The notes under the pieces: generated by a model | Told to the model about the DNA's origin: nothing | The model's database searches: none | Seen by the model: only the letters and a program-made list of their open reading frames with translations | Translations under genes and position numbers: made by a program | In this document: positions 3,614 to 56,214 of the stretch, in pieces | Numbering within the stretch: position 1 is the stretch's first letter | Layout: every line of letters starts with the position of its first letter | NCBI GenBank assembly: GCA_034440535.1 | Contig: JAWXCD010000004.1 | Span: 2,803-66,802, forward strand | Reading direction: 5' to 3' | Source of the DNA: Verrucomicrobiota bacterium | Lineage (GTDB): Bacteria; Verrucomicrobiota; Verrucomicrobiia; JAWXBN01; JAWXCD01 | Length of the DNA: 64,000 nt

Positions 3614-5233
3614 ATGAACAGTATAGAGAAACTCAAAAAAATGTTCACCCGTGGCGAAGCCTTTGTATGGCTGACAGGGTCGGCCATGGGCTTATGTCTT
3701 GTCCTGGTATTTGGGCTAATTTTTGTCATCGTTATTAATGGGATGGGAATGTTTTGGCCGCACCAGGTGACTGAGTTTAAACTTAAAGAAGGCCCCGTTT
3801 ATGTGGGTATACATACACGATCTGAAGTCGTGAAAGATGAACAAGGCGGGAAGTTAGAGCGGTACCAGGTTAAAGTGGGCAATCGCGAGTCTGGGGCTGA
3901 TTTTATGTGGATGGACGTGCCTAAAGTGGAAGCTAAGGCCATACCTAAGGATGTTATTGTCTTAGAGCGATTTGAGTACGGTGATTTTATTGGATACGTC
4001 TCCGGGTTCCAACAGGATGGGGTGTTGGTCCCAGGTGCTGACGCGAAGGCTTTATTGGCGGAGAAACTCCCTCAAGCTCAAGAGGCCTTTAAAAAGGTGA
4101 GTCATATTCAGCGGGGCGAAATGGAAAATATCGCCACGAAGGTTAATAAGTTAAAGTTGCGAAAAGACAAATTAGCTAAAGCCACAAGTGATAAGTCACA
4201 GGAAATAGCAAAATTAGATGCACAATTGGCAGTACTTCTGGCAGAAAATAATAAACACAGCGCGCGTATATTAGATTTGAATAAAGACCCAGCTCGGTAT
4301 GGGTTGGTCGTTAAATCGGCAGATGGAGTTGAACGAGTAGTGCCCATGCCGAATATCGTGAGGTATTATTATCCAAACGACATGTCATTCTTTCAAAAAA
4401 CAGGCCATTACGGAGCGAAAGTGTGGGAATTTTTGTTTGCAGAACCTCGGGAATCGAATACCGAAGGCGGGGTTTATCCTGCCATATTTGGAACGGTTTT
4501 GATGACCCTCCTCATGAGTGTTGCCGTCACACCATTTGGAGTGCTTACAGCGTTCTACCTTGGTGAATATGCCAAAGACGGGATTTTCCTTAAACTCGTT
4601 CGAATTGCGGTTAACAATTTGGCTGGGGTTCCCTCAATTGTCTTTGGGGTCTTTGGCCTAGGCTTCTTGGTATACGGGGTGGGCGGTGGAATTGATAGAT
4701 TGTTTTATTCTGATATATTGCCCACACCCACTTTTGGAACAGGCGGACTCATTTGGGCATCATTAACGTTGGCGCTACTCACGTTGCCAGTTGTGATTGT
4801 GGCGACAGAAGAATCAATCGCAGCCGTTCCGCGCGGGGTTAAAGAGGGTTCTTTGGCGATGGGTGCCTCAAAATTTCAGACGATTCTCAAAGTGGTCTTG
4901 CCAGCTTCGGTCCCTGGGATAATGACGGGAGTTATCTTGGCCATTGCCCGTGGAGCGGGAGAAGTAGCGCCACTCATGATTACCGGAGTAGCCAAAATGG
5001 CTACTGAGCTTCCGTTGGATGGGAACGCTCCTTATTTTCATCCCGAACGAAAAATCATGCACCTTGGATTTCATATTTATGATGTCGGATTTCAATCGCC
5101 AAATATCGAAGCCTCAAAACCCATGGTGTTTACAACGGCTTTGCTATTGTTGGTTATTGTATTGGCCCTTAATATAGTGGCCATTGTCATTCGGGATCAT
5201 GTTAAAAAGAAATATAGGACAGGAGCCTTTTGA
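3614..5233 (+). CDS. pstA: phosphate ABC transporter permease PstA (long form with ~250-aa periplasmic insert)
   Basis: 'GASKFQTILKVVLPASVPGIMTGVILAIARGAGEVAPLMITG' EAA-loop; starts 3 nt after pstC stop. Confidence 0.85.
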   Translation: MNSIEKLKKMFTRGEAFVWLTGSAMGLCLVLVFGLIFVIVINGMGMFWPHQVTEFKLKEGPVYVGIHTRSEVVKDEQGGKLERYQVKVGNRESGADFMWMDVPKVEAKAIPKDVIVLERFEYGDFIGYVSGFQQDGVLVPGADAKALLAEKLPQAQEAFKKVSHIQRGEMENIATKVNKLKLRKDKLAKATSDKSQEIAKLDAQLAVLLAENNKHSARILDLNKDPARYGLVVKSADGVERVVPMPNIVRYYYPNDMSFFQKTGHYGAKVWEFLFAEPRESNTEGGVYPAIFGTVLMTLLMSVAVTPFGVLTAFYLGEYAKDGIFLKLVRIAVNNLAGVPSIVFGVFGLGFLVYGVGGGIDRLFYSDILPTPTFGTGGLIWASLTLALLTLPVVIVATEESIAAVPRGVKEGSLAMGASKFQTILKVVLPASVPGIMTGVILAIARGAGEVAPLMITGVAKMATELPLDGNAPYFHPERKIMHLGFHIYDVGFQSPNIEASKPMVFTTALLLLVIVLALNIVAIVIRDHVKKKYRTGAF

Positions 5234-44746: not shown

Positions 44747-45199
44747 TTACACCCAATCTTTACCTTGGCCGATTTCCATTACTTTCAGTTTTAGCAGGTC
44801 AATCCCTTGCGCGTTCCCGCCTTTGTCTTTTAATAGATCAAGACTACGTAAAAGAAGGCTAAAAAGGAGTCGCCTCCTTTGATGTTCATTAGCAATTTTA
44901 AAGTCTGAATATCTGATTACCAAACGGAAATCCATATCCCTCTTTTTCTTGAAAAATTTAATAACTTCAGAGAAATCTGAATCGTCCCTTAGAATAACTA
45001 TACAATCCCAAGCGTCTACACCAATATCGTATGTTTGTTTTTCAATATCCCCATTGATCACTGCCTCTAGATCTTTTCTGACAGGTTGAAAAACGTCAAC
45101 TATGTCCGCTTGAGTTTCAGTGCCGATCCATAATTTCATATTAATAATCCGATTTGTTAAACGCAGGTCTATTGCCGCCATGATTAGATTTATGGTCAC
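44747..45199 (-). CDS. hypothetical protein, possible barstar-like immunity protein
   Basis: 'EAVINGDIEKQTYDIGVDAWDCIVIL' echoes barstar 'KAVINGEQI...YYGENLDALWDCLTG'; alternative start 'MKLWIG' at 45139 would sit 1 nt after the upstream fragment stop. Confidence 0.35.
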   Translation of the reverse strand: MTINLIMAAIDLRLTNRIINMKLWIGTETQADIVDVFQPVRKDLEAVINGDIEKQTYDIGVDAWDCIVILRDDSDFSEVIKFFKKKRDMDFRLVIRYSDFKIANEHQRRRLLFSLLLRSLDLLKDKGGNAQGIDLLKLKVMEIGQGKDWV

Positions 45200-54252: not shown

Positions 54253-54618
54253 TTAAGTTTTCTCCGTCGGGTCGAATGGTTTTGCGCCATCTTCCTTGAC
54301 CACTTTACCACCCCAAGAAAGAACTTTGGCTTTTGTCCCAGCAGCTTCGGCTTCCGGAATTTGGTTATTCCTCACATAAGCCAAAGAAAGGCTGGTCCAA
54401 GCAATTTGATCGTTGGGGCTGAGTTCCGTAGCCTTTATTCCCGCAGCGATGGCCTCAGGAAATTTGTCGAGTTTCATATAGGTCATCCCAAGGGCATGCC
54501 ACCCGTCGAAAAAGGAGGGATCCTGTTCGACGCATTTTTCAAATAATTCAGCCGCGCGCGCGAGTTCCCCTATTGCAAATTCCCCATTCGCTTCGTCAAA
54601 AATCTCTTCTACGCTCAT
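54253..54618 (-). CDS. TPR-repeat protein
   Basis: three TPR-like helical hairpins ('WHALGMTYMKLDKFPEAIAAGIKATELSPN'). Confidence 0.6.
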   Translation of the reverse strand: MSVEEIFDEANGEFAIGELARAAELFEKCVEQDPSFFDGWHALGMTYMKLDKFPEAIAAGIKATELSPNDQIAWTSLSLAYVRNNQIPEAEAAGTKAKVLSWGGKVVKEDGAKPFDPTEKT

Positions 54619-54686
54619 TTGTATATGGTGTCATCTTTTGTGGGGCGGGTAAAGCTCCATGAACCGATTTTCTAAAGTGTTTCACT

Positions 54687-55090
54687 CACATCCATGATGT
54701 GTGGACACGGAGCTTCCGTGTTTTCCGATGCCGGAGGCATGACGGGTGCTGGCATCCCTCCGGGATGCGATCGCTTTGGGGACTGTGATCCGGTGGTGTC
54801 GCTCGTACCTCGCTCAACCACCGGCTACATGCTGGGAAGCCTCCGGCTTCTCTGATTGCGACCTTGGATGCCGTCATGGTCTTCAACTTCGACACATCCA
54901 TGATGTGTGGACACGGAGCTTCCGTGTTTTTCATGCCGGAGGTATGAAAGCCTGTAGCCGGTGGTTGAGCGAAGTGACACCACCGGATTACCAAATTAAC
55001 ATGAATCGCACCCCAGCAGGGGTGCCAGCCAAAATCCGCCCAGGCCATCGACACACCAATTAAACGCGGACACGGAGTTTCCGTGTTTCC
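54687..55090 (+). repeat. about 2.5 tandem copies of a ~206-bp hairpin-rich repeat (non-coding)
   Basis: 'CACATCCATGATGTGTGGACACGGAGCTTCCGTGTTTT' at 54687 and 54893, partial at 55066. Palindrome ACACGGA-GCT-TCCGTGT. Internal ~60-nt segment of unit 2 is an imperfect reverse complement of that in unit 1. Overlapping six-frame ORFs are artefacts. Confidence 0.85.
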
Positions 55091-55188
55091 CGAGTCGGAC
55101 ACATGACGTTGATGGCATCCGCAAAAATGAATGGGGAGTCCGTTATAATCGTATTGCGTATAGCGCACGGTGGGTTAAAAGACACGTT

Positions 55189-56214
55189 ATGAAATTTATT
55201 CACGTGGGAGTGGGCGGGTTCGGGCAACAATGGGTGCGGACTTTAAAAGCGTCGAAGGCGGCGGAAGTCGTTGCGATGGTGGATGTGAGTGAAAAATCGC
55301 TAGAAGCGGCTCGTGAAATAGGTGGATATTCCAAAAACATTTGCTATTCGAACCTCAAAGAGGCGATGGCCCATGTCAAAGCAGACGCGGTTGTTTCTAC
55401 GACACCCCCCGCGTTTCACAAAAAAGATGTCATCACATCTCTTAAATCTGGTTTGCATGTGATCAGTGAAAAGCCAATGAGCGACACGCTTCCTGCCTGC
55501 CTGGAAATGGTCCGCACGGCGCAGGCTACCGGGAAAACATACGTCGTTTCGCAAAACTACCGGACAAATCCCGGCATGTGGACCCTTTCTAAACTTATTC
55601 GCTCCGGGAAACTTGGGCAAGTTGGACAAATTAAAATTGATTTCTATATGGGCATCGATTTCGGGGGTGGGTTCCGTCATGAAATGCCGTATCCGGTGAT
55701 TGTTGACATGGCGATTCATCATTTTGATTTAATCCGGTTTATTACCGGCATGGATGCCATTGACGTTCAAGGAGTGTCGTGGAATCCACTTTGGTCGAAC
55801 TACAAAGGGGACTGTTCCAGTAACACTGTTTTTACAATGTCGAACAACGCCAAGGTTCTCTACACCGCCAGTTGGTGTGCCAAAGGTTCGTTTTGTGATT
55901 GGAATGGGAACTGGCAAATTGAATGTGAGAAGGGAACTGTAACTTATTCTCATGGCCAAATTAAATTGCACCGAACCAAAGGACTTTATCATGTCCAAAA
56001 AGTCGAGGACGTGAAGGCTGTGGGCCCTAAACGAAGCGGACAAGACTATGTGCTCGAAGAGTTTATGAGCGCTGTAAAGACTGGCAGCAAATCAATGACC
56101 GATTGCTTGGATAACATACGGAGTGTATCGATGGTTTTATCAGCGGTTGCTGCATTAAAATCGGGTAAAAAAGTGAAGGTACTTGATCCGAGGATCATAA
56201 AGTTGTTGGAATAA
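55189..56214 (+). CDS. Gfo/Idh/MocA-family NAD(P)-dependent oxidoreductase
   Basis: 'MKFIHVGVGGFGQQW' Rossmann start, 'EKP' motif 'VISEKPMSD', family-typical C-terminal domain. Confidence 0.85.
   Translation: MKFIHVGVGGFGQQWVRTLKASKAAEVVAMVDVSEKSLEAAREIGGYSKNICYSNLKEAMAHVKADAVVSTTPPAFHKKDVITSLKSGLHVISEKPMSDTLPACLEMVRTAQATGKTYVVSQNYRTNPGMWTLSKLIRSGKLGQVGQIKIDFYMGIDFGGGFRHEMPYPVIVDMAIHHFDLIRFITGMDAIDVQGVSWNPLWSNYKGDCSSNTVFTMSNNAKVLYTASWCAKGSFCDWNGNWQIECEKGTVTYSHGQIKLHRTKGLYHVQKVEDVKAVGPKRSGQDYVLEEFMSAVKTGSKSMTDCLDNIRSVSMVLSAVAALKSGKKVKVLDPRIIKLLE

Follow-up and report, generated by a model that had tools for sequence, protein, structure and literature searches.

Layout of the repeat cluster

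The stretch of DNA analyzed here (hereafter, the window) comprises 64,000 nt of contig JAWXCD010000004.1 from a Verrucomicrobiota bacterium. The repeats under study lie in a 570 bp spacer between two divergently oriented genes, and Pfam families bear out the preliminary description, made from the sequence alone, which had named these as a TPR protein and an oxidoreductase.

54253–54618, − strand: flanking TPR protein gene (Pfam TPR_2 and related families)
55189–56214, + strand: flanking GFO/IDH/MocA oxidoreductase gene (the gene's Pfam families)

The repeat cluster itself (54683–55122) is built from H and T modules in the order H1, T1, H2, T2 (inverted), H3 and a truncated T1. The true period (H-T1-H-T2′) is about 365 nt and is present about 1.15 times.

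54683–54745, + strand: H copy 1 (direct-repeat family D1, pattern search, fold, H alignment A5)
54745–54855, + strand: T1 module, long-loop subtype (profile nhmmer, 102.5 bits; alignment A2, covariation, subtype classification)
54889–54950, + strand: H copy 2 (repeat finder, pattern search, assembly comparison, fold, alignment A5)
54928–55033, − strand: T2 module, short-loop subtype, inverted relative to T1 (profile nhmmer, 91.5 bits; inverted repeats I1, I2 and I9; alignment A2, covariation, subtypes)
55048–55110, + strand: H copy 3, degenerate (repeat finder, pattern search, fold, alignment A5)
55108–55122, + strand: truncated start of a further T1, GTTGATGGCATCCGC, compare GGTGCTGGCATCCCT at 54745 (read from the sequence; blastn)

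The region had been described as a tandem repeat of about 206 bp. However, Tandem Repeats Finder reported no tandem repeat in it, and the repeat finder (family D1) showed that direct repetition is limited to the H module, which is about 59 nt long and lies at 54683, 54889, and 55048 (spacings of 206 and 159 nt). The identical unit starts at 54687 and 54893 are real and consist of the 38-nt string CACATCCATGATGTGTGGACACGGAGCTTCCGTGTTTT. A partial third unit had also been reported: its hairpin core was recovered at 55068–55088 with one mismatch (three pattern matches in total, compared to zero expected from shuffles), but it belongs to the degenerate H3 and not to a tandem unit. Here blastn gave a 55-nt match (55068–55120 to 54703–54757), and the homology to the family ends at the truncated T1. 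The stretches that separate the H copies resemble each other as inverted repeats (I1: 41 nt, 83%; I2: 19 nt, 89%; also I3 and I9), and I1 and I2 confirm that the internal segment of the second unit is the reverse complement of that of the first, with a 6-nt deletion in a loop. A CRISPR, already rejected in the preliminary description, does not fit, given spacings of 206 and 159 nt instead of a regular 55–75-nt period and ‘spacers’ that repeat one another in inverted orientation; the window proteins tested contain no cas domain.

The region is identical to the window in an NCBI MAG contig (L001), and a JGI metagenome contig (L002) differs by one SNP across 601 nt, a C-to-T change at window position 54922 in the 3′ arm of the H2 hairpin. 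Because it is present in two independent assemblies, the repeat cluster is not an assembly artefact.

A perfect TATAAT (55144–55149) lies downstream of the cluster and 40 nt upstream of the oxidoreductase start codon. It was not called by the consensus promoter scan, as it lacks a matching −35 box; if it were a −10 box, the cluster would lie outside the oxidoreductase transcript.

The H module

The general plan of H is an ACACGGA-GNT-TCCGTGT hairpin, then a run of a few T residues, then another hairpin, CATGCC-GGA-GGCATG. The palindrome ACACGGA-GCT-TCCGTGT, noted previously as perfect, indeed forms a perfect 7-bp stem with a 3-nt loop in the first two copies.

54687–54701: H1, small upstream hairpin CACATC-CAT-GATGTG
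54705–54721: H1, hairpin ACACGGA-GCT-TCCGTGT, followed by TTT
54728–54740: H1, hairpin ATGCC-GGA-GGCAT
54911–54927: H2, hairpin ACACGGA-GCT-TCCGTGT, followed by TTTT (54928–54931)
54932–54946: H2, hairpin CATGCC-GGA-GGTATG, which doubles as hairpin hp3 of T2
55070–55086: H3, hairpin ACACGGA-GTT-TCCGTGT, followed by only TT; the next hairpin is decayed

H2 lies within the spacer of the T1/T2 dimer, and H3 shows 73% identity to H2 with a fold z-score of −0.33. In the alignment of 11 H copies (A5), all from contigs of 47–50% GC, the stem is conserved in sequence without compensatory changes, variation occurs mainly in the loop (GCT, GTT, GAT, GCC), and the small upstream hairpin is confined to the window copies.

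The preliminary description had read the palindrome as a terminator or attenuator followed by T4–5. The post-stem T runs in H1, H2, and H3 are only 3, 4, and 2 nt (4, 5, and 3 when the last T of the stem is counted), and there is none in the related locus L098. Like Rho-independent terminators, H has a GC-containing 7-bp stem, a 3-nt loop, and T residues on one strand only. Unlike them, its T tract is just 2–4 nt and is not conserved, and the window H copies have no upstream gene on the same strand to terminate. An intrinsic terminator was taken to be a GC-rich stem-loop with roughly five or more U residues in the 8 nt directly after it; H lacks such a U tract, and H1–H3 were not called by the consensus terminator scan. 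The earlier reading is thus weakened, and H, with its conserved stem, looks like a lineage-specific structured spacer motif that is at most a weak one-directional terminator on the + strand.

T1 and T2 modules

The T module was defined by a profile search and an alignment (A2) of 36 distinct copies, in which it is 96–110 nt long and reads GCTGGC, hp1, a variable linker of about 22 nt, hp2, CTAC, about 8 nt, and hp3.

54752–54768: T1, hp1, GCATCCC-TCC-GGGATGC, followed by the variable linker
54790–54824: T1, hp2, CCGGTGGT / 19-nt loop / ACCACCGG
54825–54828: T1, CTAC tag
54836–54850: T1, hp3, GAAGCC-TCC-GGCTTC
54932–54946: T2 on the + strand, hp3′
54954–54957: T2 on the + strand, GTAG tag
54958–54986: T2 on the + strand, hp2′, CCGGTGGT / 13-nt loop / ACCACCGG
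55008–55025: T2 on the + strand, hp1′, GCACCCC-AGCA-GGGGTGC

RNAalifold recovered exactly the helices hp1, hp2, and hp3. Over the 36 copies, 98.3% of cells are paired, compared to 87.6% in shuffles and 28–48% when the partners were slid, with changes on both sides in 8 of the 21 pairs. The covariation score (0.25 vs. 0.07 in shuffles) was reached by none of 500 shuffles. Variants of hp3 include GAAGCC/GGCTTC, GATCCC/GGGATC, GAACCC/GGGTTC, and CATGCC/GGCATG, and the 8-bp stem of hp2 has compensatory variants in locus L096 (CCGGGGGT/ACCCCCGG and CCGGGGAT/ATCCCCGG). Together with its loop, hp2 hardly varies: the window (47% GC) and locus L087 (57% GC) share 39 identical nt. Directly after hp2, 34 of 46 copies, among them both in the window, carry the CTAC tag; a CTAA variant, which alters the first G of GTAG, occurs in two loci (L087 and L096). 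A fourth hairpin, proposed for the linker between hp1 and hp2, was dropped, as it folds no better than shuffles (mean z-score +0.23).

Two subtypes were distinguished. T1 has a T-A pair in hp1 and a 19-nt hp2 loop (GTCGCTCGTACCTCGCTCA), and T2 has C-G at the same position of hp1 and a 13-nt loop (GTCGCTTCGCTCA), although the T2 loop of locus L093 is 22 nt long and self-pairing. The T-A and C-G forms of hp1 number 20 and 16 of the 36 copies. In all 10 loci that hold both subtypes (19 T1 and 23 T2 copies), T1 and T2 lie on opposite strands, therefore the ‘small deletion’ and ‘inversion’ of the second unit are the family-wide T2 form, and the local inversion or recombination between copies suggested previously is not borne out. 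In the window the two modules form a tail-to-tail heterodimer with inward-facing tags, and its 125 bp spacer has complementary ends (hp3 and hp3′) and contains the H2 stem-loop. The whole T1-H-T2 dimer folds as an imperfect hairpin of about 300 nt (−173 kcal/mol, z-score −8.3). The hp1 difference between the subtypes is compensated inside each local hairpin, whereas in the long T1:T2 duplex it would produce a G-T pair and an A-C mismatch, therefore selection acts on the local hairpins. In this respect the dimer differs from ERIC/IRU and other long imperfect palindromes, which it resembles in being a single intergenic and dispersed hairpin of about 300 nt: covariation maintains the small hairpins and not the long duplex, and the modules also occur singly or in alternating arrays.

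Inverted repeats around a short segment in a divergent promoter region might also indicate an inverton, in which a recombinase flips the H2 segment of about 80 bp via T1 and T2 to control both divergent genes. We regard this as very improbable. Three independent assemblies show a single orientation, there is no recombinase gene next to the cluster, the central segment lacks any promoter-like site, the arms are only about 75–83% alike, and the same architecture occurs in non-promoter contexts (downstream of purC; between hsdM and hsdS).

Conserved hairpins could likewise reflect structured RNAs, either sRNAs that each end at an H terminator or a leader/attenuator of the oxidoreductase gene, with mutually complementary T1 and T2 transcripts. 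The T runs of all three H hairpins are on the + strand, which is the strand of the downstream gene, and H is also co-directional with the downstream gene in loci L086, L088, and L098. The sole SNP in L002 keeps a G-U pair on the + strand but becomes an A-C mismatch on the − strand, the RNAs fold strongly (z-scores −8 to −10), and hairpins covary. On the other hand, both strands fold equally well, and the pairing exceptions in the modules (two G-U, four A-C) show no strand bias. Because module orientation alternates, half of the modules would be antisense on any transcript. The T run and stem of H argue against termination, as above, and no promoter signal exceeds chance. The covariance search against Rfam, one of the checks proposed with the preliminary description, found nothing for the window region at gathering thresholds or even at E ≤ 10, nor on nine related loci. 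Only tRNAs reached the gathering thresholds; the other matches, to microRNA-precursor and similar models, were far below them and are consistent with generic long hairpins. The previously suggested ‘family of small structured RNAs’ therefore stands as a dispersed family of structured repeats, but small RNA genes have no support, and an RNA function of either kind appears unlikely.

Overlapping open reading frames

Two long open reading frames overlap the cluster, one on each strand.

54746–55063, + strand: spurious 105-aa ORF across T1-H2-T2 (ORF list, protein searches, copy comparison)
54686–55168, − strand: spurious 160-aa ORF across the whole cluster (ORF list, protein searches)

Judged from the nucleotide sequence, neither is coding, in agreement with the preliminary description. 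Comparison of the window copy with a second locus (L003, see below) revealed indels in either sequence (3, 1, and 8 nt in one, 2 and 1 nt in the other); those of 1, 2, and 8 nt shift the reading frame. Substitutions are spread evenly over the three codon positions (15/18/22), and gene callers left the region without genes in both L001 and L002.

The translations of these ORFs were used as probes for repeat copies that gene callers had mistaken for proteins. In a library of 1.84 billion proteins, 120 cluster representatives matched at E ≤ 1e-3, many of them in 2–8 stretches, often in tandem, and nearly all were other ORFs without Pfam domains. Ten long hits were scanned with Pfam: six lacked a match at E ≤ 0.001, two more gave sub-threshold matches only, and the last two proved to be real surface proteins. 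The latter (P0054 and P0090, with MBG and HYR-like domains) look like chance matches and were rejected as relatives. The other ‘homologues’ match via the common DNA repeat. Open frames on both strands and 120 apparent homologues notwithstanding, it is close to inconceivable that either ORF is a real gene.

These results identify as translated repeats one class of ‘hypothetical proteins’ from genomes and metagenomes of Verrucomicrobiota and Planctomycetota; among their peptide motifs are SRWLSE.TPPD, RTPAGVPA, LASLRDA, and DPVVSL..RSTTGY. The window repeat ORF matches at least 120 protein clusters (50% identity), of which ten were scanned with Pfam, and annotators could mask those that are repeat-borne.

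Dispersal and copy number

The preliminary description had proposed a search for a dispersed element. A metagenome scan with the H hairpin led to another locus (L003), whose gene context differs from that of the window cluster and which shows 81.6% identity to window positions 54746–55056 over 315 nt. Together with the loci retrieved through the protein matches, the host loci range from 47 to 66% GC. A low-GC group (47–50% GC; L085/L086, L088–L091, and L098/L099), mostly from one metagenome series, carries H plus T1/T2, and its copies, like that of L003, are homologous but lie in differing gene contexts. A high-GC group (56–66% GC; L092–L097) consists of alternating arrays of 5–9 modules in contigs unrelated to that of the window. 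Five loci, at least four of them outside the window, are in contigs of 47–50% GC, and the 64-kb window itself contains one cluster only. Among the spurious ORFs, one NCBI protein is labeled Verrucomicrobiota bacterium and another Gemmataceae bacterium.

The exact H-hairpin pattern had no match in GTDB species genomes, IMG/VR viral contigs had no match to the H-hairpin, T2-end, or hp2 patterns, and blastn found none in plasmids and phages. Among 80 loci of oxidoreductase homologues from GTDB genomes (best homologue 61% identical), there was no three-hairpin module, no TPR neighbor, and no empty site that would show an insertion. A literature search with sequence strings of the family returned nothing relevant.

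Copy number varies between close relatives. L099 contains two tandem T1+H units compared to one in the otherwise 99.9% identical L098, and in L086 a cluster has collapsed to a ‘mini-palindrome’ of just the two outer ends (GCTGGCATCCttccGGGATGCCAGCC), which indicates that clusters expand and contract.

The L086 mini version, the conserved inverted outer ends (GCTGGCA(T/C)CCC), and the dispersal of the family would also be expected of a MITE-like derivative of a DDE-type insertion sequence, in which T1 and T2 would serve as long terminal inverted repeats and mobilization would depend on a transposase not related to RAYTs. No target-site duplication was found at the window, L003, or L088 junctions, however, and conservation extends beyond the termini to the local hairpins. 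Single T1 modules and head-to-head, tail-to-tail, and tandem arrangements fit REP clusters better than an element with fixed terminal inverted repeats. A MITE-like origin is therefore improbable.

A second small palindrome, GCAACCCC-N4-GGGGTTGC, often preceded by GTCGCAAAAC, accompanies T1/T2 in low-GC contigs and is absent from the window.

L098, 8900–9010: second-palindrome site
L088, 1420–1445 and 2140–2175: second-palindrome sites
L086, about 400–365, − strand: second-palindrome site
L003, 1–30: second-palindrome site

Relationship to REP, REPIN, and BIME repeats

The E. coli REP has the form GCCGGAT...ATCCGGC-CTAC. The modules studied here have the same kind of stem-loop, with an 8-bp stem that also starts with CCGG and an unpaired GTAG/CTAC tag at its foot (on the other strand, GTAG-CCGGTGGT...ACCACCGG). 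As in GTAG REPs, complementary changes preserve the stem-loop, and as in REPINs and BIMEs, the modules form inverted heterodimers and arrays of up to nine modules. The two subtypes of different loop length, always in inverted pairs, parallel the alternating Y and Z REPs of E. coli BIMEs. On these grounds, window positions 54683–55122 probably represent, with some room for doubt, one cluster of a dispersed, non-autonomous family of REP/REPIN/BIME-like palindromic repeats.

Published GTAG REPs have stems of 6–13 bp and complex loops, and they form head-to-head and tail-to-tail dimers, among which heterodimers with unequal loops are the rule in enterobacteria (PMC3733652). Their spacers, given as 20–100 bp or up to 130 bp, bear small stem-loops, and they occur in clusters and give rise to spurious short ORFs (PMC3733652). 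The present family shares with REPINs and GTAG REPs both dimer orientations, stem-loop spacers, clusters of variable copy number, intergenic location, and spurious ORF calls. GTAG REPs are also present in Planctomycetes and in the verrucomicrobium Opitutus terrae (PMC3733652, Di Nocera et al.). The peptides encoded by the REPs of R. baltica and O. terrae (PMC3733652) do not resemble those of the window family, which is probably outside the 24 published GTAG families, insofar as the peptides of these two species set it apart.

Several features depart from known REPs. Compared to the classical 20–40-bp REP, the module of about 100 nt is three times longer: hp2 with its tag spans 33–42 nt, but the unit actually conserved includes two extra covarying hairpins, hp1 and hp3. 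Unlike in usual REPs, the loop and flanks are conserved across phyla (contigs of 47% GC vs. 56–66% GC, one Gemmataceae-labeled). The CTAA tag of L087 and L096 differs from the GTAG REPs listed in PMC3733652, and the position of the window cluster between divergent genes differs from the sites favored by REPs.

REPtron-like Y1 HUH genes have been reported from Planctomycetes (PMC6006769). Repeats of the class 3 TnpA-Y1 ‘REPtron-like’ systems (Planctomycetes and Acidobacteria), which share phyla with the present family, are linked to Y1 HUH genes, have a high copy number, and form atypical, more complex secondary structures (PMC6006769). Unlike the GTAG of the window, however, class 3 structures have a CnGA 5′ foot (PMC6006769), and no class 3 gene turned up beside the modules examined here.

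From this architecture we infer a RAYT-type mobilization. In single-stranded DNA the modules would adopt their hairpin form, and a RAYT-type Y1 HUH transposase that recognizes hp2 and the GTAG tag may copy them in trans. Clusters could then grow and shrink through unequal recombination or slippage. A Y1_Tnp gene (PF01797, 148 aa; IS200/RAYT-type) lies about 1.8 kb from one array. No RAYT flanked by modules was seen, and neither the fetched loci nor the small ORFs tested in the window yielded a Y1_Tnp.

The repeat cluster does not reveal a new kind of system. It is a fairly ordinary kind of repeat in Verrucomicrobiota and Planctomycetota, a group in which this family is apparently undescribed. 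Located between two divergent genes, the cluster probably amounts to neutral or selfish DNA, and its effect on the + strand would be at most a weak block of read-through transcription. The PVC group thereby gains a REP-like family that is defined and can be aligned, of use for the search for a cognate RAYT, for studies of long REPIN-type persistence, and for strain typing.

Long arrays and type I restriction-modification loci

Three of the six long arrays fetched are located inside type I restriction-modification (R-M) loci.

L092, 3150–4509: array in a type I R-M locus
L095, 3086–4058: array in a type I R-M locus
L096, 1254–2079 and 3164–3406: arrays in a type I R-M locus

One of them occupies the exact gap between hsdM and hsdS, another has a short N6_Mtase gene before it and HATPase/HsdR genes after it, and one flanks rhuM between hsdS and hsdM; on a sister contig, a Y1_Tnp gene adjoins hsdS. 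This enrichment looks above chance, in a sample that is biased toward long spurious ORFs. It is conceivable, albeit doubtful, that the module is an ancient replicator found throughout the PVC group, or else a co-opted element of the host, with its loop and flanks fixed across phyla by a dedicated protein partner, and that its arrays settle preferentially in type I R-M operons, where they might tune expression of the defence locus or promote rearrangement.

In L095, sub-threshold matches to the Acido-Lenti-1 RNA motif (RF01687) were observed at 803–847 and 4151–4196 (29.6 and 24.2 bits, compared to a gathering threshold of 37), the second just after the repeat array. About 10 kb upstream of the repeat cluster in the window, a 150-aa ORF (44747–45199, − strand) matches Pfam Imm44 (Immunity protein 44; E = 3.4e-9) and may be an immunity gene against a polymorphic toxin.
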